A stretch of 64,000 nucleotides of DNA from sequence record LC739534.1. One strand, 5' to 3'. This document shows, in pieces, positions 7,123-20,151 of this stretch. The translations under genes were made by a program, and so were the position numbers. A model generated the notes under the pieces. That model saw nothing but the letters and a program-made list of their open reading frames with translations, had not been told where the DNA came from and ran no database searches. Origin of the DNA: Escherichia phage phiWec181. Positions within the stretch are counted from its first letter, which is position 1. The number at the start of each line of letters is the position of its first letter.

Positions 7123-7154
7123 GGGATAGCGTATTATTTACATTTCTTTACGTT

Positions 7155-7178: not shown

Positions 7179-7184
7179 ATAATC

Positions 7185-7553
7185 TTACTTTGTGCGGTTG
7201 TGAACGTTATCGCGTTCAACCATCAAGGCAAGGCGGATCAGTTGATCAGTTGTATCGCGTAAGCTGTCAGGCCATGTCTTATAGTTCCAGCTATCCAGGT
7301 TTGATTGTATATAGGTTTCAATCGCTTGATCCATATTATCAAACAAGTTTTCCTCCAAGCTCTCGGCTGTTTCACACTGGAAAGCATCAGCGACACTATT
7401 AATCAATAAGCAAGCCAGTAAATCAGCGTTGCGCCAATTTTTACGGATAGTTTCATCTGTCAGATAACCAACGAGATTAACCTTTGCGCCAGTGGTGGAC
7501 GTTGCGATCACTTCTTGCGCTTTTTCAACTGCTTTAATTGCTGATTTGCTCAT
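7185..7553 (-). CDS. hypothetical protein (122 aa)
   Basis: ATG at 7553 with AAGAGGAAAAG RBS. Confidence 0.6.
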   Translation of the reverse strand: MSKSAIKAVEKAQEVIATSTTGAKVNLVGYLTDETIRKNWRNADLLACLLINSVADAFQCETAESLEENLFDNMDQAIETYIQSNLDSWNYKTWPDSLRDTTDQLIRLALMVERDNVHNRTK

Positions 7554-7631
7554 CTTCTTTTCCTCTTTGTGGGCTTGCTGTATTGCTTGCCCTACGCAAT
7601 AACTATAAGTTAACAGGGTGTATAAAGCAAG

Positions 7632-7865
7632 CTATTTTTTATAAAATTTTTCTGCTGTGATATTCTTCCCTGTAGGCTTAACCGCTTGCAAAATCTTATC
7701 ATGTGCCGAACGTCCAAAGGAATAAGATCCGTAAACGGTAAACCAATAATCGCCATTGGGTTGCACGGTTACGGCGGCGTATGGTGTACCTCTCTCATTA
7801 TCACCGATAAAGTGTGAAACATTGCCGTTAACGTTCGATTTAGTGCTTTTAATTTGTCCGATCAT
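7632..7865 (-). CDS. hypothetical protein (77 aa)
   Basis: ORF with promoter-hairpin cassette upstream. Confidence 0.5.
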   Translation of the reverse strand: MIGQIKSTKSNVNGNVSHFIGDNERGTPYAAVTVQPNGDYWFTVYGSYSFGRSAHDKILQAVKPTGKNITAEKFYKK

Positions 7866-7945
7866 GGTGTTATTCCTATATTAGACGGGAAACATTCCCG
7901 CCCTACGTGATAAATAATAATATAAGCGTGATCCGGTGTCAATAG
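7866..7945 (-). promoter_or_regulatory. promoter + 5'-UTR hairpin cassette (GGGAA-loop-TTCCC variant)
   Basis: -35 TTGACA, -10-like hexamer, GC hairpin, GA-rich RBS, all read on minus strand. Confidence 0.5.
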
Positions 7946-8081
7946 GTAGAATTGTAAAGATTTGATAGTTTGTCTCTTTGTTGTTTTGTTGTTTGATAGA
8001 TGTTAGCTATCAATATATAGCGGGGTCGTCCGGTGATTACCTCCCCCGTTGCCAGTGCCGCCCGTTCAATAAGCATAACAA

Positions 8082-8112
8082 AAAACAGGACAAAAGCAAG
8101 CCCTGTTTTGTA
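8082..8112 (-). terminator. candidate intrinsic terminator
   Basis: ACAGG/CCTGT hairpin followed by TTTTTGTT on minus strand, 3' of gene 8117-8320. Confidence 0.35.
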
Positions 8113-8116
8113 AAGA

Positions 8117-8320
8117 TTAGATGATCTGCATATCCTCCACGATAATTTCTAATTTCCAAACAAGATGATCTAAGCTCCCTGATAAAAATGATTCCGATAC
8201 ATAACCGCCATCGGACACCGTAGCAAGGATCTCGCCATTTGCTTGCTCTTTGATTTGAACATCCAGGCGGTTAGCCTTTGCTTTGTTCAGGACGGCGATC
8301 AGGCGGTTAGCTGTAGTCAT
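8117..8320 (-). CDS. hypothetical protein (67 aa)
   Basis: ORF with cassette upstream. Confidence 0.5.
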   Translation of the reverse strand: MTTANRLIAVLNKAKANRLDVQIKEQANGEILATVSDGGYVSESFLSGSLDHLVWKLEIIVEDMQII

Positions 8321-8404
8321 GGTGTTTTCCTTTCAGTTGTGAGCGGCACCATTGCCGCCCTACGTGATACATCTTACACTATCAGATACATTGTGCAAGC
8401 TATT
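8321..8404 (-). promoter_or_regulatory. promoter + 5'-UTR hairpin cassette (GCGGCA-CCAT-TGCCGC)
   Basis: Minus strand reads TTGCAC, 16 nt, TAAGAT, hairpin, GGAAAACACC, ATG. Confidence 0.55.
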
Positions 8405-8596
8405 TTAGATCTCGTCACCTATATAATCAGATCTGTTCTTCTCTGTCATACGTTTTAATAATTCTTGCATATCGCTTATAGCTTGCAATGTGTCTTCTTC
8501 CAGGCTTGAATCCACATAGTCAGGATCATTCTTTACCTTGCTATGGTTATGATAGCGCAACGCTGCTAATACCTTTCTAACTTGTTCCACGTTCAT
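8405..8596 (-). CDS. hypothetical protein (63 aa)
   Basis: ATG at 8596. Confidence 0.5.
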   Translation of the reverse strand: MNVEQVRKVLAALRYHNHSKVKNDPDYVDSSLEEDTLQAISDMQELLKRMTEKNRSDYIGDEI

Positions 8597-8605
8597 GATG
8601 TACCC

Positions 8606-8740
8606 TTAAAATAGTGTGCCGATGGAAGATAGCAGGTCACTAATAACCAGGACCAGATCTACTATCACATATCTAATCAGGAAGGGGATTAGCGCCAGCG
8701 TCGCTACTATGATCCCCATTGTCATGATTACCTTTCTCAT
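8606..8740 (-). CDS. small hydrophobic peptide (44 aa, predicted membrane)
   Basis: Below ORF-track cutoff; ATG overlaps upstream stop as ATGA; hydrophobic core IIVATLALIPFLI. Confidence 0.4.
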   Translation of the reverse strand: MRKVIMTMGIIVATLALIPFLIRYVIVDLVLVISDLLSSIGTLF

Positions 8741-9027
8741 TGTTGGCGGTTTACATAAGCTTTACCGTTTACGGTCATCGGTATGGCCTCAAGGTCTGGA
8801 TCTTCCTTAAGGTCGCGTGCAAGCTCACCGCACCGGACACCCTCGAATCCGTGGTATTCTGTTTCCCCGTTCTTAAAAGTTTTAGCGGCAAGGCATAGGC
8901 GATAATTAACACCGATCCGGTTTACTGCGTTGATATCGGTTAACGTGATCGATTCCGGCAAATCGTTAGCCATTACAGGCGCGTTAATACCAACAACCAG
9001 GGCAACTACTGCGATCATCTTTTTCAT
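8737..9027 (-). CDS. secreted/periplasmic protein (96 aa, N-terminal signal peptide)
   Basis: N-terminus MKKMIAVVALVVGINAPVMA is a typical Sec signal peptide. Confidence 0.6.
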   Translation of the reverse strand: MKKMIAVVALVVGINAPVMANDLPESITLTDINAVNRIGVNYRLCLAAKTFKNGETEYHGFEGVRCGELARDLKEDPDLEAIPMTVNGKAYVNRQQ

Positions 9028-9062
9028 GTGTCTATCCTCTTCCTATTGCGTTTAATGGGGCG

Positions 9063-9299
9063 TTATTGATTGATGTTATGATGAAAGTTATTTTCTTCAA
9101 CGGCTTTTAAAATAAAGGCTGTTACCGCTTTCGTGTCTACTTGTTCGAACGTATCAGAATAAGCCCAATAATAATCATCCCCTACTTTAGGCGGGTAAAC
9201 CTGGACAAGGAGATCGCCACCTGGTTGATCTATAAGCTCAACATGTAAGCCGGATGATTCAGCGGTTTTAACGGCGTTTAATACTGTTGCAATACTCAT
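9063..9299 (-). CDS. hypothetical protein (78 aa)
   Basis: ATG at 9299 with AAAGGAAAAG RBS. Confidence 0.5.
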   Translation of the reverse strand: MSIATVLNAVKTAESSGLHVELIDQPGGDLLVQVYPPKVGDDYYWAYSDTFEQVDTKAVTAFILKAVEENNFHHNINQ

Positions 9300-9343
9300 A
9301 ATCTTTTCCTTTCTAATGTGGGGCGTTGCCGCCCCTTTGTTGA

Positions 9344-9643
9344 TTAGATCGCTGTTTCCAGTAGTTCGGCTAACGTCTTACCGCCTGATAGTTGGTCTAA
9401 CGTTTGCTCTTCTGACAAGAAATTAGCGGATATTAAACCGACCTGGTTCCCTTTGTGCCAGTTAGCCTGGCGGGTGATTCCATCCTTTAAGGATTTTACC
9501 GCCATTGTGCAACCATCACCAAATGATTCATTTTTATGGTCCATCACTTCATAAGCGCCCAGCTTGCTGCTGTTAGGCACCATTAACGCGAATACATCAC
9601 CAACAACCAGTTTTTCTACGGTAACAATAGCGATAGTTTCCAT
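9344..9643 (-). CDS. hypothetical protein (99 aa)
   Basis: ATG at 9643 with GAGGAAAAC RBS; cassette upstream. Confidence 0.55.
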   Translation of the reverse strand: METIAIVTVEKLVVGDVFALMVPNSSKLGAYEVMDHKNESFGDGCTMAVKSLKDGITRQANWHKGNQVGLISANFLSEEQTLDQLSGGKTLAELLETAI

Positions 9644-9724
9644 TTTGTTTTCCTCATTATCGGCGGCACCATTGCCGCCCTACGTGGTAAATATTATCAC
9701 ACTGGCGATCTGTGTCAATACTTT
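9644..9724 (-). promoter_or_regulatory. promoter + 5'-UTR hairpin cassette (GGCGGCACCATTGCCGCC)
   Basis: TTGACA -35 and hairpin ahead of gene 9344-9643. Confidence 0.55.
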
Positions 9725-10111
9725 TTATTCAATATAAATCAAATTATCTTCACCAATGTAAGCCGACACGTCCGGCATGAATTTAGCGGCATTTGTTAGG
9801 CGGTTGGCTGTGTTAGTAGTGTATATTTCAGGGCGATCCCAAAATCCTACGCCGTGACCGTTACGGGTAAAATGTAAATCATTCCCGATCTGGTTGGCTG
9901 TAGCGCCGTCGCTCATTGCTTCCGCAATAGCGGCAACGTTAGCATTACAAAATGATGTAACATCGTCCGCGATACGGTCCAGGGCTTGAGAAGAAAAATC
10001 ATAATCGTCTAAGTTATCAATAAAATCACCTTCGTGATCCCTGGCTGATTCAGCAAAAATAAAAACGTCTTTATAACCGTTGATGATTTCGTTAATGATT
10101 TCTGTTTTCAT
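9725..10111 (-). CDS. hypothetical acidic protein (128 aa)
   Basis: ATG at 10111 with GA-rich RBS. Confidence 0.55.
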   Translation of the reverse strand: MKTEIINEIINGYKDVFIFAESARDHEGDFIDNLDDYDFSSQALDRIADDVTSFCNANVAAIAEAMSDGATANQIGNDLHFTRNGHGVGFWDRPEIYTTNTANRLTNAAKFMPDVSAYIGEDNLIYIE

Positions 10112-10125
10112 GTTGTGTCTCTCTT

Positions 10126-10230
10126 TTAACCGATACCGTGGGAAGATAGGATCATATTAGCCATAGTTGCAACCACTCCAACCGATAACGCCAGGCCAAC
10201 TACTGCAACCGTGAAAATTTTCTCTAACAT
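10126..10230 (-). CDS. small hydrophobic peptide (34 aa)
   Basis: Below ORF-track cutoff; has its own cassette upstream (10233-10311); hydrophobic translation. Confidence 0.4.
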   Translation of the reverse strand: MLEKIFTVAVVGLALSVGVVATMANMILSSHGIG

Positions 10231-10232
10231 GA

Positions 10233-10311
10233 TGCTACCCTCATTAATGGGCGTTGCCTTATTGCCCCGCCCTACGTAATACAGTTTACCCGATTTATAA
10301 TTGTTGTCAAA
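10233..10311 (-). promoter_or_regulatory. promoter + 5'-UTR hairpin cassette (imperfect GGGCGGGGC variant)
   Basis: TTGACA, 17 nt, AAACTG, then GC hairpin, read on minus strand. Confidence 0.45.
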
Positions 10312-10581
10312 TTATTTTTTCAAGCTTGACCACTCAAAACACGGCGGGATCTCGTTAAAACTTGCACCCTGTAAAGCACATAATTTTTTAGCAATAGCCG
10401 CCGTAACCTGGCGTTGTACGCGCGGATCTGCTACTGATTGGAGAAAGTAGGCGGCTTTATATGTGATCATGCTTTCGCCTGTTTCCTTGTTAACGTGGTG
10501 CACTATTTTAGCCTTATCATCTTTAACCAGGGTGTAACCGGATTCGATGGCCTTGATTGCAACGTCCAATGATATTTTCAT
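10312..10581 (-). CDS. hypothetical protein (89 aa)
   Basis: Second in-frame ATG (10581) has GA-rich leader; ATG at 10593 abuts the hairpin. Confidence 0.5.
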   Translation of the reverse strand: MKISLDVAIKAIESGYTLVKDDKAKIVHHVNKETGESMITYKAAYFLQSVADPRVQRQVTAAIAKKLCALQGASFNEIPPCFEWSSLKK

Positions 10582-10593
10582 GATTTGTCTCAT

Positions 10594-10665
10594 CTGATAA
10601 GCGGGGCGGTTGTCGCCCCTGTAAAATGAATACTACGCGCTTATTTTGCTGTTGTCAACAACGGG
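10594..10665 (-). promoter_or_regulatory. promoter + 5'-UTR hairpin cassette (GGGGCGGTTGTCGCCCC)
   Basis: Cassette; -35 overlaps the 3' end of upstream gene. Confidence 0.5.
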
Positions 10666-10823
10666 CGAAAAAACTTTTTGATCTGGTTTGCTGTTAGGCG
10701 CATATCTGCTTTGAGCGTTGCCAGGCGATAAGCTTTACCCTTGATCAGTTTATGGTGTCCGGTGCCGTTGCCGATGATAACATCGATTTCACACAATACG
10801 CGGGAAGCATCAATCTTTTTCAT
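10641..10823 (-). CDS. hypothetical protein (60 aa)
   Basis: ATG at 10823 with AAAGGTAA RBS. Confidence 0.5.
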   Translation of the reverse strand: MKKIDASRVLCEIDVIIGNGTGHHKLIKGKAYRLATLKADMRLTANQIKKFFRPLLTTAK

Positions 10824-10905
10824 GTTGTTACCTTTCGTGTTATGGGGCGCTTGTCGCCCCCTGTCTGATAAAGATAATCCCTTTCGGGATATCTGTCAAC
10901 TATTT
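10824..10905 (-). promoter_or_regulatory. promoter + 5'-UTR hairpin cassette (GGGGCGCTTGTCGCCCC)
   Basis: TTGACA -35 and hairpin. Confidence 0.5.
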
Positions 10906-11091
10906 TTATTGTACGGTGTGGCGATCGCTGTATTCAGCGTAAAACTCACATCCATCGTCACGGCTATCAAGTTTAACGATGTACCCGCTATTCCAACGTT
11001 CAACTGATACTACCGGATAATACTTCCCGTTAAGGATATTTTTCACCAGGTCGCCTTTTACCAGTTCTTTCGTTTTCTTGTAAGTAGTCAT
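10906..11091 (-). CDS. hypothetical protein (61 aa)
   Basis: ATG at 11091 downstream of cassette (ORF-track start 11172 runs through the promoter). Confidence 0.5.
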   Translation of the reverse strand: MTTYKKTKELVKGDLVKNILNGKYYPVVSVERWNSGYIVKLDSRDDGCEFYAEYSDRHTVQ

Positions 11092-11175
11092 GATGTTTTC
11101 TCTTCTGTTTTGCGGTGGACCGTTCCGCCGCCCTATGTAATAAACTATACGCGCCAACGTTCCAGGCGTCAAGTA
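11092..11175 (-). promoter_or_regulatory. promoter + 5'-UTR hairpin cassette (GGCGGCGGAACGGTCCACCGC)
   Basis: TTGACG, 17 nt, TATAGT, hairpin, GA-rich RBS. Confidence 0.5.
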
Positions 11176-11289
11176 TATTTTTAAAATTATTTTCTACAAC
11201 GTAAAACGCCCCAGCATAAGCCAGGGCGCACTAATTAAATCAGGTAGGGGATTGCATTGCCTTACACCTTTTAGGCTGTTAGCTGGCGA

Positions 11290-11517
11290 TTAGTAGCGTA
11301 GGATGTTTACACGCTCATCCCGCCCCAAGATATCTTCATATCTGTTTCCCCTTCCTTCGTACCAGATGATCACGGTGTCAGGATCAAACGGATTGTTTTC
11401 GATAGCCGTTACCTTACAAAAATCATAAAACGGGAACGGATAAACGCCAACCTGTAAACGCGCCCGATCTCCTGGGCGAATGGTAGCGGCACGATCTGCA
11501 ATGACATTGTTATACAT
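11290..11517 (-). CDS. hypothetical protein (75 aa)
   Basis: ATG at 11517 with AAGGGG RBS. Confidence 0.5.
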   Translation of the reverse strand: MYNNVIADRAATIRPGDRARLQVGVYPFPFYDFCKVTAIENNPFDPDTVIIWYEGRGNRYEDILGRDERVNILRY

Positions 11518-11527
11518 AGTAAGCCCC

Positions 11528-11806
11528 TTAACGATTATAAACATTGTGGATGGCATCGAAAGCAAGCCGACCATAAGCCGCCAAATCGGGATTGATCCAG
11601 GCGTTATCTAACATCGTTTCAAGGACTGTGGAATCATCGTATAAAGCATCATAAAAATCTGCACGGATGATCGTTTCAATATCGTCCGGTGTTAGTTCCC
11701 TGTTAAGGTTGCAAACCGCTAAAACGTCCACCAATAATTTCCAATCTTGCAAATTAGTGGTTAATACTGTTTTCATTTCTTCGGTTGTGAGTTTAACGAT
11801 GGTCAT
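11528..11806 (-). CDS. hypothetical protein (92 aa)
   Basis: ATG at 11806; cassette upstream. Confidence 0.55.
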   Translation of the reverse strand: MTIVKLTTEEMKTVLTTNLQDWKLLVDVLAVCNLNRELTPDDIETIIRADFYDALYDDSTVLETMLDNAWINPDLAAYGRLAFDAIHNVYNR

Positions 11807-11883
11807 GATTTTATCTCTCTGTTAGGCGGGGCGCTTGTCGCCCCTATGTGATACACTTTATCAGATTGGTTGGGCTTGTCAAA
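11807..11883 (-). promoter_or_regulatory. promoter + 5'-UTR hairpin cassette (GGGGCGCTTGTCGCCCC)
   Basis: TTGACA -35 and hairpin. Confidence 0.5.
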
Positions 11884-11994
11884 CTATTTTTTCTTTTTCT
11901 TTGCTTCCAACCGTCTAAGGTTACGGCTTGACTTATTGCGCAAGGCGCTTAGATCGTCGTACCCTTTCCATGCTTGCATATCTTTCGGATTCAT
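11884..11994 (-). CDS. small basic protein (36 aa)
   Basis: ATG at 11994 with AAGGGGG RBS; K/R-rich. Confidence 0.35.
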   Translation of the reverse strand: MNPKDMQAWKGYDDLSALRNKSSRNLRRLEAKKKKK

Positions 11995-12004
11995 GTTAGC
12001 CCCC

Positions 12005-12211
12005 TTAACGCGTTGCGTAAATAATATGACTTGCCGGACTACTGCAAACCAGGTTAAGCGGCTTGCTGTTATATTGCATCTTGTCGGCTTGTTTGCTTGC
12101 TGCGATGATTCCATCTATTACACGTTGCAAACTAACCTTTACCGCCTTTTTTGCCAACCGTTGACGCTTTACCAGTGCCTGGATCTTTTTCTTGTCTGCG
12201 TTGCTTAACAT
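12005..12211 (-). CDS. basic protein (68 aa)
   Basis: ATG at 12211 with AAGGGCG RBS. Confidence 0.5.
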   Translation of the reverse strand: MLSNADKKKIQALVKRQRLAKKAVKVSLQRVIDGIIAASKQADKMQYNSKPLNLVCSSPASHIIYATR

Positions 12212-12220
12212 GGTGCGCCC

Positions 12221-12400
12221 TTACTTGTTAGCCGGATTGTATGCCAGGATCGCGCCGCTTGCTTTCACGCTTTCATCTTCATAGTTGCGCAGATCGTTTT
12301 CTGTAAGATTGAGCGCGATCACTTCCTCGATCTCAATGCCAGTGGCAAGGGCGATCTCTTTAATGATGTTTGATGATCTGATAACGTTTACTGTTTTCAT
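12221..12400 (-). CDS. hypothetical protein (59 aa)
   Basis: ATG at 12400 with AAGGTG RBS. Confidence 0.45.
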   Translation of the reverse strand: MKTVNVIRSSNIIKEIALATGIEIEEVIALNLTENDLRNYEDESVKASGAILAYNPANK

Positions 12401-12410
12401 GGTGTGCACC

Positions 12411-12530
12411 TTATAAGATGATTGATAAGATAGTGATAACGAAAGCGATAACACCAACGGCGATCGTAGTCTTACGCCCTTCGGATACTGCCGGATTCTC
12501 TACCGTGTATTCTACTGTGTATTTGTTCAT
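12411..12530 (-). CDS. small peptide with C-terminal transmembrane segment (39 aa)
   Basis: Below ORF-track cutoff; cassette upstream; hydrophobic C-terminus. Confidence 0.4.
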   Translation of the reverse strand: MNKYTVEYTVENPAVSEGRKTTIAVGVIAFVITILSIIL

Positions 12531-12629
12531 TGTGTTATCCTCTCGCTTGCTTTGAGAACTATTCCCGCCGCCCTATGAATTAAATATACACTATCCCAAA
12601 ATGATTGCAAGCCTTTTTCTAAATTATTT
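12531..12629 (-). promoter_or_regulatory. promoter + 5'-UTR hairpin cassette (GC hairpin variant)
   Basis: Hairpin and promoter hexamers between genes. Confidence 0.45.
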
Positions 12630-12914
12630 TTATGCAGTAAACAGACCATCATTTACAACGGCGGCGATGATCTCCCGTGCCATTGATTCAGGGAACGGGG
12701 CGCTATAGTCCTGGCTTGTCTCGTCGCTGTCTGTTACCCAATGATAAGCCAACGAGTAAAAGCCTTTACTCCCTGTTTTCAGTGAAACGATGATCACTCG
12801 GTTAAGTCCATCGGTAAACGTTGCCGTTAATGTGTTATCATCTTGCGTCATGTTGGACAAGTAAGCGGCATCATTAACCAGGGAAAACAGTAGCACCGTG
12901 TTAGCTTTAACCAT
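12630..12914 (-). CDS. hypothetical protein (94 aa)
   Basis: ATG at 12914 with GAGGATC RBS; ORF-track start at 12944 is an ATG inside the cassette hairpin. Confidence 0.5.
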   Translation of the reverse strand: MVKANTVLLFSLVNDAAYLSNMTQDDNTLTATFTDGLNRVIIVSLKTGSKGFYSLAYHWVTDSDETSQDYSAPFPESMAREIIAAVVNDGLFTA

Positions 12915-12944
12915 GATTTGATCCTCAAACGGGCGCGGCACCAT

Positions 12945-13015
12945 TGCCGCCCTACGTAATACACTTTACCTTATTTCTTCCAAAAAGCAAGTTTATTTGC
13001 AATTGGTGACAAATA
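12945..13015 (-). promoter_or_regulatory. promoter + 5'-UTR hairpin cassette (GCGGCACCATTGCCGC)
   Basis: -35 TTGCTT lies inside the last codons of upstream gene. Confidence 0.5.
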
Positions 13016-13171
13016 ACGTTTACCCGCGTAAAACAGTACAGCGACACTAACCACGGCGGCGATCTCATGCATAGCCGACGGGAAACGAGTATCATAATAA
13101 GATCCAATAATAGCAATAGCGGCAACGGCTGCAACGTCGATAATGATTTTTTCTTGTTTTGCGGTGATCAT
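12971..13171 (-). CDS. small membrane protein (66 aa)
   Basis: Two hydrophobic segments; ATG at 13171. Confidence 0.55.
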   Translation of the reverse strand: MITAKQEKIIIDVAAVAAIAIIGSYYDTRFPSAMHEIAAVVSVAVLFYAGKRYLSPIANKLAFWKK

Positions 13172-13259
13172 AATATTTACCTTTTTGTATGGTGGGGGGA
13201 ACTATTCCCCGCCCTGATGTAATACAGTTTAACAGATCCGGTTATAGTGTCAACCACTT
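13172..13259 (-). promoter_or_regulatory. promoter + 5'-UTR hairpin cassette (GGGGGGAACTATTCCCCGCC)
   Basis: TTGACA -35 and hairpin. Confidence 0.5.
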
Positions 13260-13445
13260 TTAAAGATATTTTATACTGATAACATTTTCCGGTTTAACCT
13301 GGTTGTGATAAGCATCAATGTAAATCAAACCATCGTTAGAAACGCCCAGGATCACGCCTTGCGCAATAAAACCGTATCGGTCGCGGTAACGTGCCGCCAC
13401 TTTGTTCGCTGCGTTGTAGGCTGTTTTAATCTCGTTTAAGGTCAT
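13260..13445 (-). CDS. hypothetical protein (61 aa)
   Basis: ATG at 13445 with GAGAGG RBS. Confidence 0.5.
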   Translation of the reverse strand: MTLNEIKTAYNAANKVAARYRDRYGFIAQGVILGVSNDGLIYIDAYHNQVKPENVISIKYL

Positions 13446-13469
13446 GTGCTGTTATCCTCTCGTTAGATA

Positions 13470-13500
13470 TAAGAAAGGGCGCTATTTGCGCCCTTGATTT
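13470..13500 (-). terminator. candidate intrinsic terminator (GGGCGC-N5-GCGCCC)
   Basis: Hairpin 13476-13494 followed on minus strand by TTTCTT. Confidence 0.45.
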
Positions 13501-13503
13501 GTT

Positions 13504-13650
13504 TTAGTCTTCCAGGTCCATCCATGCACGTTTCTCGGTGCGGTCGCGCTTAGTTTTGTTGCGCTTGTCGCCCTTGCGGATCACTTCTTCATTCCACGCT
13601 GCGCGTGTTTTAGAAGATTGGATTTTTTCGGCGCGATTAGATGTATTCAT
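13504..13650 (-). CDS. small basic protein (48 aa)
   Basis: Below ORF-track cutoff; ATG at 13650 with cassette upstream; K/R-rich. Confidence 0.4.
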   Translation of the reverse strand: MNTSNRAEKIQSSKTRAAWNEEVIRKGDKRNKTKRDRTEKRAWMDLED

Positions 13651-13748
13651 GATGTTTCCTCTTTTTAGTTGTGAGCGGCACCATTGCCGCCCTACGTGTT
13701 TTAATTTACTTTATTGTTTGATGCCTGTCAACTACTTTTAAAAACTTT
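13651..13748 (-). promoter_or_regulatory. promoter + 5'-UTR hairpin cassette (GCGGCACCATTGCCGC)
   Basis: TTGACA -35 and hairpin. Confidence 0.5.
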
Positions 13749-14102
13749 TTATTCGTGGGAAAGTGTAAGGATCACACCTGCAATATATAACCAATAGTTT
13801 TCCCTTTCTTTCTGGATCTTGTTTTCGCTACTACGCTCGTTAATGTACCCCCAGGATGTTAACAACCGATCTACTTCCCAATACTCGAAAGCTATATTAA
13901 TATTTGACGGTAAACCTTGTAACCATGATGCTATTGCTCTGATAATGTTATGATCGTAACGTTTTTGATTATCGGTGTACCAATATTCAGATTTAAAACA
14001 GCGCATCAATTCCGCGATCTTCTCTTTCTCTTCTGTGATGCCATACTCGCTATAATCAATTGAGGCCAGAATATAAAGTTTAATTGCATTTTGTGCTTTC
14101 AT
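13749..14102 (-). CDS. hypothetical protein (117 aa)
   Basis: ATG at 14102; cassette upstream. Confidence 0.6.
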   Translation of the reverse strand: MKAQNAIKLYILASIDYSEYGITEEKEKIAELMRCFKSEYWYTDNQKRYDHNIIRAIASWLQGLPSNINIAFEYWEVDRLLTSWGYINERSSENKIQKERENYWLYIAGVILTLSHE

Positions 14103-14179
14103 GGTGTCTCTCTTCTGTTGTGAGCGGCACCATTGCCGCCCTATGTGTTACATCTTACCGGATTTTTAAAACTTGTCAA
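14103..14179 (-). promoter_or_regulatory. promoter + 5'-UTR hairpin cassette (GCGGCA-CCAT-TGCCGC)
   Basis: -35 TTGACA (+ strand tgtcaa 14174-14179), 16 nt, -10 TAAGAT (14152-14157), hairpin 14124-14139. Confidence 0.6.
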
Positions 14180-14402
14180 TCATTTTTCTACTATCATTTG
14201 ATAACCTGTTTCAAGGTTAGTAAACACCGTGATCCCGTCCTGGCGTTCACTCATAAGCAAGCAAGGCGCTAACATCCTTCCTACTTCCTTGCACTCGTTA
14301 TAAGCGGCGGTAATGTCTCCCGCTGCTTTGTCTTCTGTGGTGAATGTATCGTTTACGTAAACTTTACCAGCGACAACGGCGACAATAGCAAAAGTGATCA
14401 TG
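14180..14402 (-). CDS. hypothetical protein (74 aa)
   Basis: ATG at 14402 with AAGAGGAAAAC RBS (ORF-track start 14473 judged over-extended). Confidence 0.5.
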
Positions 14403-14479
14403 ATGTTTTCCTCTTTGTGTTTTTCGTTTTGATTAGTTGATAATACAGCAATTCGCAGATTAGTCTTTAGCAATTCATG

Positions 14480-14698
14480 CTATTTACTCACAACAGTATC
14501 GAAAACAAATTTTTCTTTGTTGTCGAAGCTAACATATCCGATTCGACCACGCAAGCCGCCAGTAGTGCCGTATTCGTAACCATCAAGGCCTTTAACCTTC
14601 CAATCCGTACCCATTAAAACCGCATTATATTTCTGACCAACTACAAACGCGCCACCAGTTGATTCAATGCAAACAACTTTAATTTTACGGATTGCCAT
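14480..14698 (-). CDS. hypothetical protein (72 aa)
   Basis: ATG at 14698; promoter TTGACT-TATAAT with hairpin upstream. Confidence 0.5.
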   Translation of the reverse strand: MAIRKIKVVCIESTGGAFVVGQKYNAVLMGTDWKVKGLDGYEYGTTGGLRGRIGYVSFDNKEKFVFDTVVSK

Positions 14699-14776
14699 TT
14701 TCTTTCTCTCTTTGTGGTGATTGGTTTCTCTTCTCTATAGCGCCCATTATAAGGCGCTATAACGAAAAGTCAACGA

Positions 14777-14944
14777 TTATTTTTTACGGCTTAAGGTGCC
14801 CAAGTTATCAGCGTGACGCAGACCAGGGAAGATCCAAGCGCCGGATTCATCTTTTACAGGTGCCTTAACACTTGCGCCCAGGTTGGCGGCGTTAACTTTA
14901 CGTGCTACGTTGCGAGCGGCTTCACGGGTAGTAAAAGTAATCAT
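14777..14944 (-). CDS. small basic protein (55 aa)
   Basis: Below ORF-track cutoff; ATG at 14944 with GAGAAGAGGAAAAC leader; cassette upstream. Confidence 0.45.
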   Translation of the reverse strand: MITFTTREAARNVARKVNAANLGASVKAPVKDESGAWIFPGLRHADNLGTLSRKK

Positions 14945-15016
14945 GATGTTTTCCTCTTCTCTTTGTTAGGCGGTGGACCATTCCGCCGCCTTGATGTAAT
15001 ACAGTTTACTCTATTT
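14945..15016 (-). promoter_or_regulatory. promoter + 5'-UTR hairpin cassette (GGCGGCGGAATGGTCCACCGCC)
   Basis: TTGCAA, 16 nt, TAAACT, hairpin. Confidence 0.5.
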
Positions 15017-15175
15017 TTATTTCTTTGCAACTACTTTTATATTTTCTTTCTTTGCCTCTTCCACCTGGTCCGCCCACTGCTTACCCCACGTTTGAGCGTT
15101 ATAGTGATATTGACAAAGAGCAACACCACGTTTTAAACCAGCGATAGACTTTTTACCACATTGACAAGTTTTCAT
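15017..15175 (-). CDS. small Cys-containing protein (52 aa, possible zinc-binding)
   Basis: Below ORF-track cutoff; translation MKTCQCGKK...LCQYHY has spaced Cys/His. Confidence 0.4.
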   Translation of the reverse strand: MKTCQCGKKSIAGLKRGVALCQYHYNAQTWGKQWADQVEEAKKENIKVVAKK

Positions 15176-15186
15176 TTTGTGATCCC

Positions 15187-15399
15187 TTAGTTGATGATAG
15201 TCAGTGTAAAATTATAATCACCATTCTTATATAACACCATATTACCGAAGGTGCCGACTCGACGCATATCCATACGGATACCTATAACATCTTTAACGTC
15301 TTTAATGTTTTTAACGCCCGTGATATCTTTATTAAAATATTCCTCGTCTGAAAATAAAACTTGACTTGCATTTTTTAACAGTGTGCGGATATTAGCCAT
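15187..15399 (-). CDS. hypothetical protein (70 aa)
   Basis: ATG at 15399; cassette upstream. Confidence 0.5.
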   Translation of the reverse strand: MANIRTLLKNASQVLFSDEEYFNKDITGVKNIKDVKDVIGIRMDMRRVGTFGNMVLYKNGDYNFTLTIIN

Positions 15400-15488
15400 C
15401 GTGATAATCTCTCTTCTGTTGTGAGCGGCACCATTGCCGCCCTACGTAATACAGTTTACTCTTTTTCTTTCCGGTGTCAACAATCTTT
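15400..15488 (-). promoter_or_regulatory. promoter + 5'-UTR hairpin cassette (GCGGCACCATTGCCGC)
   Basis: TTGACA -35 and hairpin. Confidence 0.5.
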
Positions 15489-15716
15489 TTAGATTAATTC
15501 GTCCAGGCATAACAGGCGATCAACGTTGAGATCGGTCAGGCTGATGGTTGGCACCTGATAAGATTCGATGTACTCGACGCTTGCATATTCCCCAAAGTTA
15601 GCAATAGCCCACTTATTCAAGATCTCACATACATCATTAATCTTTTTGTTTGTTACAACTGCAATAACCTGGGAAGTGCCAACGGTGCCGGATACGCGAA
15701 CAATATTGATAGCCAT
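15489..15716 (-). CDS. hypothetical protein (75 aa)
   Basis: ATG at 15716; cassette upstream. Confidence 0.5.
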   Translation of the reverse strand: MAINIVRVSGTVGTSQVIAVVTNKKINDVCEILNKWAIANFGEYASVEYIESYQVPTISLTDLNVDRLLCLDELI

Positions 15717-15795
15717 GATTTTTCTCTCTTCTGTTAGGCGGGGCGCTTGTCGCCCCTATGTGATACATCTTACACTAATTTAAAACTTTGTCAAA
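15717..15795 (-). promoter_or_regulatory. promoter + 5'-UTR hairpin cassette (GGGGCGCTTGTCGCCCC)
   Basis: TTGACA, 16 nt, TAAGAT, hairpin, AGAAGAGAG RBS. Confidence 0.55.
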
Positions 15796-15889
15796 TTATT
15801 TTCTATTTCTTCCGTAATAGCCCAATTTATGATCTAAGCTAAAACGTTTTGTGAGATAGGTCGAACGATGTTTCATTTTTATGTCTCCT

Positions 15890-16129
15890 TTACATTCCAA
15901 CCATAGCGGCGCGGATCGCGGTAGTGCTATACTTGAAACCGTCTGGAGTTTTATCTTGTCCAGTCTGTTCCAGAAAGAGCATCATATCACGCGCCGCATC
16001 GTTACGGTTAGAATTATAACTAATAAATTCTTTCGCGGTGCGGTATAATGATTCATCGTTATTAATCCAAAGGCTTACATTCCAATGAGTTTTGTTTTTG
16101 TGACCTAAGAACATTTTTGATTTAGCCAT
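15890..16129 (-). CDS. hypothetical protein (79 aa)
   Basis: ATG at 16129; cassette upstream. Confidence 0.5.
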   Translation of the reverse strand: MAKSKMFLGHKNKTHWNVSLWINNDESLYRTAKEFISYNSNRNDAARDMMLFLEQTGQDKTPDGFKYSTTAIRAAMVGM

Positions 16130-16218
16130 GATGTTAATCTCTTTTTCAGTGAGGCGGGAACTATTCCCGCGCCCTATGTAATACAGTTTACTCTTTTTAT
16201 TCGTGCTGTCAATGCTTT
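16130..16218 (-). promoter_or_regulatory. promoter + 5'-UTR hairpin cassette (GCGGGAACTATTCCCGC)
   Basis: TTGACA -35 and hairpin. Confidence 0.5.
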
Positions 16219-16572
16219 TTATAAATCTTTTTTACGTTTTACATCGCTTGCATGACTGTATACAGCGATCCCATTATCACGACAAAAACGGGTAAGGTAT
16301 GATCCGCGTGAAAACTCTTTCCCTTCCAGGTCAACAACCTTGCTAAATTCTTCCAGGGCAACGGTATCAAAATGATCACCATAACCATATTGAAACGGCA
16401 CGTTAACAACTTCAATCAATTTACCGCCGATCTCAACGTCCACGCTTAAAGAAAAATATGTGTTACCGTAGGACTGTTGAAACCAGCGACGGGCGCTAAT
16501 GTGAACGGCTTCAATCTCACCAATTTTAAATTGAGTGTTACCCAGGATCGCAACGTTGATATTTTTAGCCAT
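16219..16572 (-). CDS. hypothetical protein (117 aa)
   Basis: ATG at 16572; cassette upstream. Confidence 0.55.
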   Translation of the reverse strand: MAKNINVAILGNTQFKIGEIEAVHISARRWFQQSYGNTYFSLSVDVEIGGKLIEVVNVPFQYGYGDHFDTVALEEFSKVVDLEGKEFSRGSYLTRFCRDNGIAVYSHASDVKRKKDL

Positions 16573-16668
16573 GATTTTTTCTCTCTTTTTGGTTAGTGGG
16601 AAGTGTTCCCGATAAAAGTTATTATGCTTATACTATCGTTTTTTGTCAATAGTATAAGACTAAAACTT
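16573..16668 (-). promoter_or_regulatory. promoter + 5'-UTR hairpin cassette (GGGAACACTTCCC variant)
   Basis: TTGACA -35 and divergent hairpin sequence. Confidence 0.45.
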
Positions 16669-16848
16669 TTAACGATAATCATCGTAGGCTTTATTAACCT
16701 GGCGAATATAACATTCGAAAGCGAGATCAATAGAATCATATTCCCGCACATAATCCCCGTAAGAAACTACATACACACCTTTTTGATCCTCAAACGTCAT
16801 GATGATAGAATCCAGGCCGATGATTTCAGTTTTAGCGATGATAGTCAT
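16669..16848 (-). CDS. hypothetical protein (59 aa)
   Basis: Below ORF-track cutoff; ATG at 16848; cassette upstream. Confidence 0.45.
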   Translation of the reverse strand: MTIIAKTEIIGLDSIIMTFEDQKGVYVVSYGDYVREYDSIDLAFECYIRQVNKAYDDYR

Positions 16849-16936
16849 AATAATAACCTTTTTATTGTTGGCGGCACCATTGCCGCCCTACGTGATAAAC
16901 TATACCAGAATTTTAAACAGTGTCAAACGTTTTTTC
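16849..16936 (-). promoter_or_regulatory. promoter + 5'-UTR hairpin cassette (GGCGGCACCATTGCCGCC)
   Basis: TTGACA -35 and hairpin. Confidence 0.5.
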
Positions 16937-17182
16937 TTAGTTTGCGAAATATGGCGCGGCGGCTGATGCCGTTAATCTCCAAGTGATTTGGCTATCGATC
17001 AAGTATTCTTCATTCTTGATCCGCACGGTATCAATCGAGAAGTTACTGAAAGGCTTGCTCTTGATTTTACGAACAACCGTTACACGACGGTTATTTTTCA
17101 TCTCTTTTAACTGAATCCAGGCGTAACCTTTTTCATTGACAAATATTTCATTGTGATTGGTGATAGATGATAAGTGTTTCAT
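16937..17182 (-). CDS. hypothetical protein (81 aa)
   Basis: ATG at 17182; cassette upstream. Confidence 0.5.
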   Translation of the reverse strand: MKHLSSITNHNEIFVNEKGYAWIQLKEMKNNRRVTVVRKIKSKPFSNFSIDTVRIKNEEYLIDSQITWRLTASAAAPYFAN

Positions 17183-17273
17183 GATTTTTCTCTCTTCTGT
17201 TTTGAGCGGTGGACCATTCCGCCGCCCTATGTGTTACATCTTACTACTTTTTTAAACATTGTCAAGGATATTT
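17183..17273 (-). promoter_or_regulatory. promoter + 5'-UTR hairpin cassette (GGCGGCGGAATGGTCCACCGC)
   Basis: TTGACA -35 and hairpin. Confidence 0.5.
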
Positions 17274-17555
17274 TTAACTATATGATCCACATCGTTCGCA
17301 GTAGTGATCATCGTCGTCATCTGCTACCTGGCTGATAAAATGATCTACCTTTGCTTTCAAATTATTATAATTGCTTTCTACTTCCTGTAGTCGTCGTTGG
17401 TAGTATTCCAGGGCTTGCACATAGGCCATTTGTTCGGTTTTAGCTTGCATAGCTAAATTCATGCCACGCGTTTCATCGTATAACCAATAACCATCATTAC
17501 ATTCACTAATAGATAGTGTAGGGCTTAGTTTTTCGTGACGGATAACCTTGCTCAT
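17274..17555 (-). CDS. hypothetical protein (93 aa) with C-terminal CxxC
   Basis: ATG at 17555 with AAGGGGCAC RBS. Confidence 0.5.
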   Translation of the reverse strand: MSKVIRHEKLSPTLSISECNDGYWLYDETRGMNLAMQAKTEQMAYVQALEYYQRRLQEVESNYNNLKAKVDHFISQVADDDDDHYCERCGSYS

Positions 17556-17565
17556 AGTGTGCCCC

Positions 17566-17676
17566 TTACTTCAAAATGATTGTTGTGATAACTGCTACGG
17601 TGATCCAGAATGGAACAACTAAGATAATAGCGTTAATCGTTCCAACTGTCAAACTATTTTCTTTCTTGATCATCAT
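17566..17676 (-). CDS. small hydrophobic peptide (36 aa)
   Basis: ATG at 17676 with AAGGAAAAC RBS; hydrophobic translation; the 77-aa ORF-track call starts inside the cassette hairpin. Confidence 0.4.
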   Translation of the reverse strand: MMIKKENSLTVGTINAIILVVPFWITVAVITTIILK

Positions 17677-17683
17677 GTTTTCC

Positions 17684-17767
17684 TTACAGTGTCCAAAGAA
17701 TGATTTCAAGTGCAGCACGGAAACCAGGAATAAAATTGATTGCAAAAAACAGGGAAGTAGTAAACAT
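17684..17767 (-). CDS. small hydrophobic peptide (27 aa)
   Basis: ATG at 17767 directly downstream of cassette; hydrophobic. Confidence 0.3.
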   Translation of the reverse strand: MFTTSLFFAINFIPGFRAALEIILWTL

Positions 17768-17772
17768 TTTTC

Positions 17773-17841
17773 TATCCTTTCAGTTGTGAGCGGCACCATT
17801 GCCGCCTGATGAGTTAACTATAAGGGATCACGTTTTACCTG
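17773..17841 (-). promoter_or_regulatory. promoter + 5'-UTR hairpin cassette (GCGGCACCATTGCCGC)
   Basis: TTGACA -35 and hairpin. Confidence 0.5.
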
Positions 17842-18399
17842 TCAACCTAAATCATCAAAATAAAGATAATTTTTTTCGGCTTCTTTCTTCTCTTCCTGTG
17901 ATGCCTCAAAGACTGGGAGAAAGTGATCAAAGGCGACGCACTCAACCGCTTGATCGTCTTCCTCTTCCTGGTCTTCCTCCTGGGCTATGGCTGCAATTTT
18001 GGCTAATTTCCTTTCAGCCTGGATCAGCTTACCATCTAAAACGCTTTTAGCGGTGCTGTACGCCGTCCAAGTGATGCGCTTACTTTCCAGCGCGGCATCA
18101 AGCGCCGCTATCTTGCTGGGGTATTCATCCAGGACACGAAAAGCCGGATCTACCTTGTACAGCGGATTATCTTTCGCGCCGTCGCTATCATCTGCGGCGC
18201 TTGCAATGTCAGCGTTACCATTCGCCAGCCAACCAGGGCGATCGCTGCGTGTTTTGGTATTCCCATGACTACGCGCCGATCTGTTGCCTACTTGCTCGCC
18301 ACTATAGCCAGGAGCATGATCGATCATGTCGTCCGGTATAATGCGCGGATCATTAACGTCATGTTTTACCCAGGACTGGATCACATATTCGCGCCCCAT
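17842..18399 (-). CDS. hypothetical protein (185 aa) with acidic C-terminus
   Basis: ATG at 18399 with AAAGGGGTG RBS; no cassette of its own, so likely in operon with two genes upstream. Confidence 0.6.
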   Translation of the reverse strand: MGREYVIQSWVKHDVNDPRIIPDDMIDHAPGYSGEQVGNRSARSHGNTKTRSDRPGWLANGNADIASAADDSDGAKDNPLYKVDPAFRVLDEYPSKIAALDAALESKRITWTAYSTAKSVLDGKLIQAERKLAKIAAIAQEEDQEEEDDQAVECVAFDHFLPVFEASQEEKKEAEKNYLYFDDLG

Positions 18400-18659
18400 T
18401 ATACACCCCTTTTAACAATCATTTCACACACAAGAAATAAGCTGGCGGAATCACGGCAAGGATAGAAAGATGTACGATAATCTCTCACCCCTGCTTTTAT
18501 GATCTCCGTGGTTTTACCTGATAGCACATTGTAAATAGTGTAACTTGTCGGACTGTTTTTATATACCTTGCCAGGGTAGATCATAACATAACGAGCAAGG
18601 TTATAAAATTCCTCGTTACGAAAGGCTATGATCTTCCCGCATACCTTAAGAAAGTGCAC
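18399..18659 (-). CDS. hypothetical protein (86 aa)
   Basis: GTG start at 18659 with AAGGGGG RBS. Confidence 0.45.
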   Translation of the reverse strand: MHFLKVCGKIIAFRNEEFYNLARYVMIYPGKVYKNSPTSYTIYNVLSGKTTEIIKAGVRDYRTSFYPCRDSASLFLVCEMIVKRGV

Positions 18660-18669
18660 GTTAGCCCCC

Positions 18670-18942
18670 TTACAGCAAAAAGTTTACTTGTCTTGCTGTT
18701 AATGTAGTATCAACCATTTTCGGGCTTTTATAATTGACAAAACGCGCGGTTTTTTCAATAGCGAAGCCGAGATAATCTTGTTTGTTGAAATTACATTCTT
18801 TCTTAAATGTTTCCCGTGCAATGGCGATCGCTGCGTCCAGGGATAAACGCCCGTCAATATTGATATTTGCGAAAGATCCGCCACCGCTCATAGGTTTACC
18901 AGTGGTGCCCGTTACGATCATTGTTGCGCTATATGATGCCAT
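18670..18942 (-). CDS. hypothetical protein (90 aa)
   Basis: ATG at 18942 directly downstream of cassette. Confidence 0.5.
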   Translation of the reverse strand: MASYSATMIVTGTTGKPMSGGGSFANINIDGRLSLDAAIAIARETFKKECNFNKQDYLGFAIEKTARFVNYKSPKMVDTTLTARQVNFLL

Positions 18943-19032
18943 GATGATAATCTCTCTTAGTTGTGAGCGGTGGACCATTCCGCCGCTCTACGTGATACAT
19001 CTTATCAGGTTGTTGCCTGTTGTCAATACTTT
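18943..19032 (-). promoter_or_regulatory. promoter + 5'-UTR hairpin cassette (GCGGTGGACCATTCCGCCGC)
   Basis: TTGACA -35 and hairpin. Confidence 0.5.
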
Positions 19033-19230
19033 TTATTCAAGCCCTACGATATGTAAGACACGGCGATTAGCAATAGCGTGCTGGTCTTCTGTTATAACGC
19101 CCATTTCTACCAGTGAATCAAGAAAGGAAAGCACCGTGATATATTCGTCATCGGGTACACTCATTTCATTAGTACCGTTTACCACTACGTTGATTTGTCC
19201 TGCTTTCGCTACAATGTGCAATGTTGCCAT
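19033..19230 (-). CDS. hypothetical protein (65 aa)
   Basis: ATG at 19230 with GGAG RBS. Confidence 0.5.
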   Translation of the reverse strand: MATLHIVAKAGQINVVVNGTNEMSVPDDEYITVLSFLDSLVEMGVITEDQHAIANRRVLHIVGLE

Positions 19231-19504
19231 GATCTTAACTCCAGGTGATGAATGATGTTTTTTGTTGGTTGACGGTGGATTATGGAGATCCTCACCTTTG
19301 CCCGTCCTGCATTGCGCCCTCCTGTTGTTTATTGTCGTTGTGCCTCGCCCCCCTCGACAAGATTAATACTACGCTACCAGGTGCGGAACGTCAACGACTT
19401 TTTCAATCTTTTTTATTTTCTTTTTGCTTGCTATATATAAAGGAAAGGGCTATCATCTTTCTACCGCGCCAACCAGGGCGCACAACAGAAGAAAGGGCGA
19501 CACC

Positions 19505-19771: not shown

Positions 19772-19774
19772 TCT

Positions 19775-20150: not shown

Positions 20151-20151
20151 T

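Follow-up and report, generated by a model that had tools for sequence, protein, structure and literature searches.

The promoter-early stem-loop (PeSL) elements of T4-type phages are repeated intergenic modules of ~70-100 bp that combine an upstream stop codon in an AT-rich tract, a sigma-70-like early promoter, a GC-rich stem-loop, a Shine-Dalgarno sequence and an ATG; they are concentrated in regions of small ORFans, where they border genes that prove inserted, deleted or replaced when close relatives are compared, and where chimeric cassettes occur (Arbiol et al., 2010, PMC2839356; Comeau et al., 2014, PMC4122927). Their stem-loop may be found between the two promoter hexamers, across the -10, 5' of the -35 or shortly ahead of the start site, and has been shown to act as a terminator/attenuator (PMC2839356). 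Another precedent is the stem-loops of E. coli ompA and papA, stable hairpins a few nucleotides from the mRNA 5' end that depend on structure over sequence and block attack by RppH and by 5'-end-dependent RNase E (PMC3997798). Here we describe an array of cassettes in a 64,000-nucleotide stretch of Escherichia phage phiWec181 (LC739534.1; hereafter “the window,” meaning the whole stretch analysed), which resemble PeSLs in size, in their parts and in the small-gene surroundings where they are found, and resemble the ompA and papA leaders in the predicted position of their hairpin.

The stem of the phiWec181 cassettes begins 10 nt past the -10, is transcribed as the predicted 5' end of the gene's own mRNA and has no U-tract after it, whereas the PeSL stem-loop, lying in or upstream of the promoter, is not part of its own transcript. 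The initial annotation of this DNA had likened the modules to PeSLs; the likeness holds for the list of parts (a sigma-70-like promoter with its AT-rich tract, then a GC-rich stem-loop with Shine-Dalgarno sequence and ATG) and for the shuffling of ORFans by indels with recombinant cassettes, but not for the position of the stem-loop, whose first paired base falls 9-12 nt (mode 10) past the -10 in 128 of 153 cassettes, only one unit (c14773) being arranged as in a PeSL. Because a PeSL stem-loop sits within its promoter or ahead of it and ends transcription, the cassettes described here are analogues of PeSLs, not homologues or members, and they belong to a different lineage (Stephanstirmvirinae and Vequintavirinae rather than T4-type phages). 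The ompA and papA hairpins, for their part, serve single genes, whereas the present element is standardised, repeated ~24 times and built into a promoter module, with a 5' end and an effect on half-life that are predicted. It is best classed as a new version of the promoter-plus-stem-loop cassette theme, joined to the known principle of protection by a 5' hairpin.

The cassette array and its anatomy

Phage phiWec181 is a Phapecoctavirus (Stephanstirmvirinae) of the rV5/phAPEC8/phi92 group of myoviruses, and by megablast the window is 100% identical to Escherichia phage phiWec186 (LC739535.1; 154.5-kb genome). A plus-strand block at 26-62 kb encodes a UvrD-type helicase, NrdD, TerC, TelA, a primase-helicase and a family-A DNA polymerase; the cassettes occupy a minus-strand stretch of small genes, nearly all without an assigned function, and ten cassette genes compared with PHROGs yielded one small membrane protein and otherwise families of unknown function. 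Twenty-four cassettes lie on the minus strand between 7.55 and 19.04 kb, an array of ~12 kb, and one more on the plus strand at 42371-42463. A covariance model made from ten copies of the commonest variant and run without filters over the window returned 22 matches at E<0.05 (21 on the minus strand, 7551-19038, and one on the plus strand), and three more minus-strand units with weak model scores were seen by eye: c10658 and c16649, with divergent or short hairpins, and c14773, with a hairpin over its -10. On the other 100 kb of the genome the same model gave no match better than E=0.03. The figure of about 22 copies in the initial annotation agrees well with the 24 counted on the minus strand; the range it gave, 7866-19032, starts one cassette too late (c7630, 7551-7642).

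Two of its statements went too far. That nearly every small gene has a cassette is an overstatement, since there are 24 cassettes for ~35-40 genes (the corresponding part of phiWec179 has 35 annotated coding sequences), and “one per tiny gene” is too strong, with roughly 60% of the genes covered and one cassette driving a 324-aa TerC-family gene. The genes without a cassette are members of mini-operons of two or three genes, joined by tight junctions with neither promoter nor hairpin. In a second and much longer run of ~70 small genes (L010 32700-50000 together with window positions 1-7000, minus strand), neighbours overlap or are joined by 10-bp junctions and cassettes are absent, so that the one-promoter-per-gene layout is restricted to the 12-kb array and is not general in this phage.

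Direct reading and the covariance model both bear out the proposed anatomy of promoter, hairpin, ribosome binding site (RBS) and ATG. Each module opens with an A-rich tract that holds the stop codon of the gene before it; then come, in order, TTGACA, a spacer of 16-17 nt, TAAGAT/TAAACT/TATAGT, GTATCAC(A/G)TA, the hairpin, a (UC)ACAAC(A/U)GAAGAGAGA-like leader that contains the Shine-Dalgarno sequence, and AUCAUG. The 153 cassettes mentioned above, every one on the coding strand, were collected with nhmmer from the window and eight related loci (ASO2A, phAPEC8, phiWec179, phiWec190, Schickermooser, PsgM04F, Justusliebigvirus alia and Vequintavirus slur16). The -35 is TTGACA in 115/152 of them, the spacer measures 16 nt in 98 and 17 nt in 54, the -10 fits TAnnnT (TAAGAT, TAAACT, TATAGT and similar), and the 14 nt upstream of the promoter are 48% A and 29% T. 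Cassettes with another hairpin spacing mostly have the same core with a longer outer stem; within the window the stem begins 10±1 nt past the last base of the -10 in ~20/24. Spacing on the far side is looser, with 17-25 nt from the 3' end of the hairpin to the ATG, across a leader that is 52% A and 19% G.

Directly behind the -10, ten positions share the consensus G-T-A-T-C-A-C-R-T-A. Transcription by E. coli RNA polymerase usually begins 7±1 nt past the -10, preferably at a purine that follows a pyrimidine; pyrimidine-purine steps are found here at positions 5/6 and 7/8, so the predicted start is A6 or R8. The hairpin would thus lie ~3-5 nt from the predicted mRNA 5' end (five unpaired nucleotides if A6 is used, three if R8), a few nucleotides past the start site as the initial annotation had it.

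Stems are 5-10 bp long, and in 21/24 window cassettes the hairpin has a folding energy of -9 to -15 kcal/mol, with an ATG downstream; folding energies of the 5' untranslated regions have a mean z of -2.5, with 17/24 below -2. Hairpin and promoter go together beyond what chance would give: in a model-free scan, promoter-like sites with a hairpin of <=-8 kcal/mol at 6-14 nt past the -10 made up 20/25 in the array vs 11/134 elsewhere in the genome, and 23-24 hairpins have a promoter vs one orphan, tight promoter-less gene junctions having no hairpin. The four hairpin variants first listed are all present, having been written as the plus-strand complement. An ATG found in some hairpin loops was considered as a start codon and dropped, being missing from many variants and having no RBS. 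Mechanical open reading frame (ORF) calls on the minus strand at 18978, 12944 and 17799 begin at this loop ATG (AAUGG), lengthening three ORFs, and one loop-ATG call yields a 77-aa ORF in a different frame; by cassette geometry the starts are 18942, 12914 and 17767 instead. The loop ATG is apparently used in some GenBank records of relatives.

Pairing and exchange of the hairpins

Over the ten related genomes, the 153 cassettes carry 64 distinct hairpin sequences. At orthologous sites, grouped by downstream gene, the promoter and RBS flanks are shared and the stems differ, yet pair; one gene has five different stems in five phages (GGGCGGCGGAAUGGUCCACCGCUC, GAGCGGCGGAAUGGUCCACCGCUC, GGGCGGGAAGUGGUUUCCCGCUC, GAGCGGCGGAAUGGUCCGCCGCUC and GGGCGGCAAUAGUGCCGCUC), and an internal C.A mismatch of one common variant has been repaired by A>G in one phage and by C>U in another. 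When arms were swapped among 48 distinct hairpins, the mean energy went from -11.97 kcal/mol in the natural combinations to ~-8.5 kcal/mol, and none of 5000 permutations reached the natural value. Pair counts in a model-based alignment of 92 cassettes show 94.8% of cells paired vs 83.7% after shuffling (0/500), with double changes at seven of the eight model pairs, 56 compensatory cells and a collapse of the signal when the structure is slid by 1-3 columns; this alignment was fitted to the model and its sequences are related, and the arm-swap and orthologue comparisons are independent of it. Pair 2 occurs as G.U (39), G-C (32) and A-U (6), a wobble cycling that argues for pairing in the sense-strand RNA and not for a DNA palindrome.

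Orthologue comparison, arm swap and pair counts all uphold the initial annotation in its claim that compensatory change keeps the stems: in alignment the two arms co-vary, and the stems did not turn out to be unconserved. When 28 diverse hairpins were simply aligned with MAFFT, RNAalifold found no more than three pairs, which we take as a failure of alignment and not as evidence against pairing, because unequal stems and loops of 3 or 4 nt shift the register. Decayed stems number 2/24. The same layout extends beyond the genus, to Justusliebigvirus, Vequintavirus and Seunavirus; in the small-gene region of Salmonella phage PVP-SE1 (Seunavirus) promoter, hairpin and leader recur with other stems, e.g., GCCGGGGAAUGGUUCCCCGGC and GGCGGGAGAGGUUCCCGCC, so the architecture is conserved across two subfamilies. 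Taken together, these comparisons show that the hairpin is selected at the RNA level for its structure and not for its sequence, and that it is coupled to the position of the promoter.

The cassettes also mark the places where gene content changes. Comparison of the 6-21 kb region with four relatives (BLASTN) gives blocks of homology broken at gene-sized indels. The gene at 10312-10593 lies in the window between c10658 and c10310; phiWec179 has a single, chimeric cassette there, its promoter half identical to c10658 and its hairpin half identical to c10310, and a second, similar junction is found at 12963|13209 relative to phiWec190. Half of the distinct breakpoints (17/34) fall inside cassettes, although these make up 19% of the region (binomial p=6e-5), an enrichment that is confounded because almost all intergenic DNA here is cassette; several other breakpoints are at tight gene junctions. 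In phage alia, 4/10 cassettes have a hairpin allele common to paralogous cassettes of the same genome and to no orthologue, a sign of ectopic exchange or gene conversion. The ~90-bp repeats act as portable homology, recombination between them deleting, inserting or swapping single small genes and exchanging hairpin alleles as well. The initial annotation had suggested such shuffling and a comparison of related genomes, and that comparison shows gene-sized indels bounded by cassettes, one with a clean chimera, as an evolutionary consequence of their shared homology.

Possible roles of the hairpin

We lean, with some reserve, towards reading the units as early sigma-70 cassettes whose transcribed 5' hairpin would shield the mRNA from 5'-end-dependent decay. 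Each would be a self-contained expression cassette for an early gene, read by the host sigma-70 RNA polymerase: an A-rich UP-like tract (holding the upstream stop codon) and a near-consensus promoter would start the unit, the conserved initial transcribed sequence would set the GC-rich hairpin ~3-5 nt from the mRNA 5' end, and an unstructured A/G-rich leader, the Shine-Dalgarno sequence and the ATG would follow. RppH and the 5'-sensor RNase E pathway require single-stranded 5' termini, hence the stabilising effect of secondary structure at the 5' end (PMC3997798). A role as 5'-end stabiliser fits the tight promoter-to-hairpin spacing, and we infer that the hairpin forms the mRNA 5' end and protects it. 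Immediate-early mRNAs would thereby be stabilised, and cleavage of read-through transcripts in the AU-rich promoter segment could leave fragments that also have a protected 5' end. The transcripts of phage T7 gene 10, with their 5' stem-loop, are a further example of a stabilising stem-loop at the 5' terminus.

Several points weigh against 5'-end protection. A start at position 6 would leave a 5-nt 5' tail, at the edge of the presumed protection; the unpaired-tail limit from the 1992 work of Emory et al. is reportedly 2-4 nt, as it is often quoted. The loop is more conserved than an element of pure stability needs, with “AA” in 151/152 and AAU(A/G)G in 101/152, and this conservation could come from shared ancestry or from a factor that reads the loop. 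The covariation counts depend on the model-fitted alignment, and the enrichment of breakpoints has the confounder noted above. Some promoters of the array have no hairpin (19394, with a 117-nt leader) or weak stems (c16649, c12610). The promoter at 19394 (TTGACG-17-TAGTAT, minus strand) is followed by its 117-nt G-rich leader at 19244-19361, a place taken by the standard GGGCGGCAAUGGUGCCGCUC hairpin in phAPEC8, phiWec190 and Schickermooser; compared with shuffled sequence, neither this leader (19228-19362; z=+0.6) nor 7945-8075 folds better. A pure stability role also leaves unexplained, together with the constant loop, the G-rich 5' arm of the stems (G-C 233 vs C-G 57; A-U 78 vs U-A 2).

Because the loop is so oddly constant, we rank as the main rival a trans-acting factor, a phage or host RNA-binding protein or nuclease, that would bind the hairpin and thereby govern all immediate-early genes together. 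It could do so through translational shut-off, targeted decay, protection of the 5' end or processive antitermination, much like lambda N with boxB, T4 RegA/RegB or Aca2 with its RNA hairpin. Stems vary around a loop whose AA is invariant in 23/23 aligned window cassettes and whose closing pair is usually A-U, and the position of the hairpin is fixed across ~24 co-regulated transcripts. We still consider such a factor improbable: ~20 loop sequences are tolerated (including ACAAG, CAC, UGU, AAUAAG and AAUACA), stem length varies from 5 to 10 bp, common descent with gene conversion can account for the similarity of the loops, and no candidate binding protein emerged, the sampled neighbouring ORFs having no informative family. 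The lambda/P22 nut sites and the rrn leader antiterminator are likewise small promoter-proximal hairpins with an A-rich loop on early transcripts, and one loop variant, ACAAG, recalls the GACAA of the P22 boxB loop; those sites occur once per long operon and with a boxA, whereas here there is one hairpin per gene, at the extreme 5' end. A boxA/nut antitermination site was rejected, boxA-like sequences (GCUCUUUAACAA-like, <=3 mismatches) giving 88 matches vs 80 expected and none in cassettes, and no N-like factor was identified among the ORFs sampled. The rV5 paper calls gp11 a Srd homologue; no Srd family was seen among the ORFs scanned, and a link to T4 Srd and RNase E is speculation. Should the GC stem with its A-rich AAU(R)G loop be a recognition handle on every immediate-early transcript of rV5/phAPEC8-type phages, which we likewise doubt, the hairpin would do more than clamp the 5' end: a single factor of phage or host origin would recognise it and turn the early regulon on or off post-transcriptionally, and the element would be a phage-wide RNA regulon tag hitherto annotated “promoter” or “terminator.”

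That the hairpins are terminators or attenuators insulating each gene from upstream transcription we regard as unlikely, although their GC-rich 6-10-bp stems, with G-runs then C-runs, and their 3-5-nt loops resemble intrinsic terminators and PeSL stem-loops, WebGeSTer called them terminators in MZ726793 (the ASO2A annotation), a lone PeSL stem-loop lowered lacZ read-through (PMC2839356), and insulation would benefit densely packed promoters. Unlike intrinsic terminators, they have no U-run and stand just 3' of a promoter and 5' of the gene served, where a terminator would attenuate its own gene. The 8 nt past the stem hold 0-1 T in 115/152 cassettes (maximum 4), in line with the initial annotation, which saw no U-tract and set terminators aside, and the opposite strand has no T-run either; junctions without a promoter have no hairpin; and canonical terminators with U-runs close units in the same array (13475-13495, AAGGGCGC-N5-GCGCCCUU plus a U-run; also 11206-11229 and 8082-8109, all minus strand), which indicates that the phage uses ordinary terminators where termination is needed. 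An intrinsic terminator was rejected because the U-tract is missing; the minus-strand terminator scan lists the true terminators only. A still weaker case can be made for an inverted repeat that works as DNA, either as a palindromic operator for a dimeric repressor (~+4 to +24) or as a phage-specific promoter element: the palindromes are perfect or nearly so and directly downstream of strong promoters, and PHIRE picked the 20-mer TGTAGGGCGGCAATGGTGCC as a repeated motif. Here, however, the half-sites vary and co-vary around a constant centre (AA), the opposite of an operator; orthologues exchange stems that differ in length and sequence; pair 2 cycles through G.U, G-C and A-U; the arms are asymmetric, with the G-rich 5' side already described; and a consensus sigma-70 promoter is already present upstream. 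These phages are not known to encode an RNA polymerase. Least credible of all is a hairpin without present function, a hitch-hiking palindrome in cassettes that would all derive, through duplication and gene conversion, from a single ancestral intergenic region. Cassettes have clearly exchanged sequence ectopically and become homogenised, and many copies are identical, but pairing has been kept across 64 sequences and four genera by double substitutions and independent mismatch repairs, the position relative to the -10 is held within 1 nt, and decayed stems are rare. A host-derived repeat was also rejected, the 20-mer occurring in only three contigs of 185,579 bacterial genomes.

The element has been seen before under other names. 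In the phAPEC8 RefSeq record the same 20-mer is a “putative promoter determined with PHIRE,” beside a “host dependent promoter”; in the ASO2A record each hairpin, standing right behind a promoter, is a “rho-independent terminator (WebGeSTer).” The ASO2A paper gives no more than counts of promoters and terminators, and the rV5 paper lists promoters and does not mention the hairpin. We found no description in literature on phAPEC8, phi92 or ESCO13 promoters or stem-loops, on Vequintavirinae or Stephanstirmvirinae transcriptomes, or under the motif sequence, and Rfam 15 gave no match at the gathering threshold over the window and two sub-threshold chance matches in 7000-20500. Recognising the cassette corrects a recurring annotation error (a phage promoter or a terminator) in >150 public phage genomes and defines a regulatory module, conserved among therapeutically used phages (relatives of rV5, phAPEC8 and phi92), for those of their genes that are understood least. 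It also carries the PeSL idea, of regulatory cassettes that double as recombination linkers for shuffling accessory genes, over to myoviruses of an unrelated lineage, in which the layout is different. With ~60 sequence-diverse, position-matched 5' hairpins on strong promoters, the cassettes form a natural library suited to working out the rules of 5'-end-dependent decay, and the array is a source of parts for synthetic expression cassettes.

Individual cassettes and neighbouring features

Read along the minus strand, the array opens with c19026 (18940-19038), which has TTGACA at 19026-19021, TAAGAT at 19004-18999, the hairpin GAGCGGCGGAAUGGUCCACCGCUC at 18988-18965 (-14.4 kcal/mol) and its ATG at 18942. 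It is followed by c17845 (17765-17857; hairpin 17806-17789, GGCGGCAAUGGUGCCGCU; ATG 17767, opening a 27-aa peptide), c17265 (17180-17277; hairpin 17227-17204, GGGCGGCGGAAUGGUCCACCGCUC; ATG 17182) and c16926 (16846-16938; hairpin 16887-16870, GGCGGCAAUGGUGCCGCC; ATG 16848), and then by the weak variant c16649 (16570-16661), with the hairpin GGGAACACUUCCC at 16610-16598, -4.0 kcal/mol, a model E of 3.7 and ATG 16572. Next come c16212 (16127-16224; hairpin 16174-16151, GGGCGCGGGAAUAGUUCCCGCCUC; ATG 16129), c15794 (15714-15806; hairpin 15756-15740, GGGGCGACAAGCGCCCC; ATG 15716), c15480 (15397-15492; hairpin 15442-15423, GGGCGGCAAUGGUGCCGCUC; ATG 15399) and c15030 (14942-15043), where the -35 is TTGCAA, the hairpin AGGCGGCGGAAUGGUCCACCGCCU lies at 14991-14968 and the ATG at 14944. 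The variant c14773 (14696-14785; ATG 14698) has TTGACT-16-TATAAT and an 11-bp hairpin at 14762-14735 (UUAUAGCGCCU-UAUAAU-GGGCGCUAUAG) over its own -10, the PeSL-like arrangement noted above, and no hairpin in its 5' untranslated region.

Two further copies of the GGGCGGCAAUGGUGCCGCUC hairpin follow, at 14141-14122 in c14179 (14100-14191; ATG 14102) and at 13692-13673 in c13731 (13648-13743; ATG 13650), and then c13253 (13169-13265; hairpin 13214-13194, GGGCGGGGAAUAGUUCCCCCC; ATG 13171). In c12990 (12912-13002) the -35 is TTGCTT at 12990-12985, the -10 is TAAAGT, and the core hairpin GCGGCAAUGGUGCCGC at 12950-12935 precedes ATG 12914; c12610 (12528-12622; ATG 12530) has a decayed hairpin, GCGGCGGGAAUAGUUCUC, of -3.4 kcal/mol, with UUCCC kept in the orthologues. 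The GGGGCGACAAGCGCCCC hairpin recurs at 11844-11828 in c11882 (11804-11894; ATG 11806) and at 10860-10844 in c10899 (10821-10911; ATG 10823), on either side of c11172 (11089-11184; hairpin 11131-11112, GCGGCGGAACGGUCCACCGC; ATG 11091). Cassette c10658 (10579-10670; hairpin 10619-10603, GGGGCGACAACCGCCCC) is, with the gene at 10312-10593, the indel missing from phiWec179; c10310 (10228-10322) has the hairpin GGGCGGGGCAAUAAGGCAACGCCC at 10272-10249 and ATG 10230, and c9718 (9641-9730) the core hairpin GGCGGCAAUGGUGCCGCC at 9679-9662 and ATG 9643. The last three minus-strand units are c8398 (8318-8410; -35 TTGCAC, -10 TAAGAT at 8376-8371, hairpin GGGCGGCAAUGGUGCCGCUC at 8360-8341, ATG 8320), c7942 (7863-7954; hairpin 7903-7883, GGGCGGGAAUGUUUCCCGUCU; ATG 7865) and c7630, with the -35 TTGCTT, the hairpin GGGCAAGCAAUACAGCAAGCCC at 7592-7571 (-8.3 kcal/mol), a model E of 5e-4 and ATG 7553. 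Between c9718 and c8398 the orphan hairpin GGGGCGGCAACGCCCC (9320-9335, minus strand) is followed by an RBS and ATG 9299 and has no promoter upstream; it is possibly a remnant cassette, and homology with phiWec190 breaks exactly there (9338).

The only plus-strand cassette (42371-42463) has TTGACA-16-TAAGAT and the hairpin GCGGGGAGUGGUUCCCCGC in front of the TerC-family gene at 42461-43435. This TerC-family membrane protein and a TelA-family protein 2 kb downstream (45546-46658, plus strand) are of the tellurite-resistance type, in a lytic phage.

Just upstream of the cassette array, in ~1.2 kb of sparsely coding DNA, there are four copies of a 21-nt palindrome, AAATGAGAAnnATTCTCATTT (20030-20141), and after them the two copies of a 62-nt direct repeat (20153-20214 and 20292-20353). 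These repeats resemble iterons or operators and may mark an origin or control region; the alia record has “repeat_region” features at a similar position beside its own cassette array, a likeness by position only. At the other end, ~5080-6620 is a stretch of ~1.5 kb without an annotated gene in the phiWec179 equivalent, with a number of long, imperfect inverted repeats and a terminator at 6612-6590 as its boundary; it gave no tRNA or Rfam match and may correspond to the “non-coding” box of the rV5 genome map. Finally, the record “Pseudomonas phage PsgM04F” (OR584014.1) shares 92% identity with this coliphage across the region and thirteen “Campylobacter phage” records also match, so that the host labels of these records are probably wrong.

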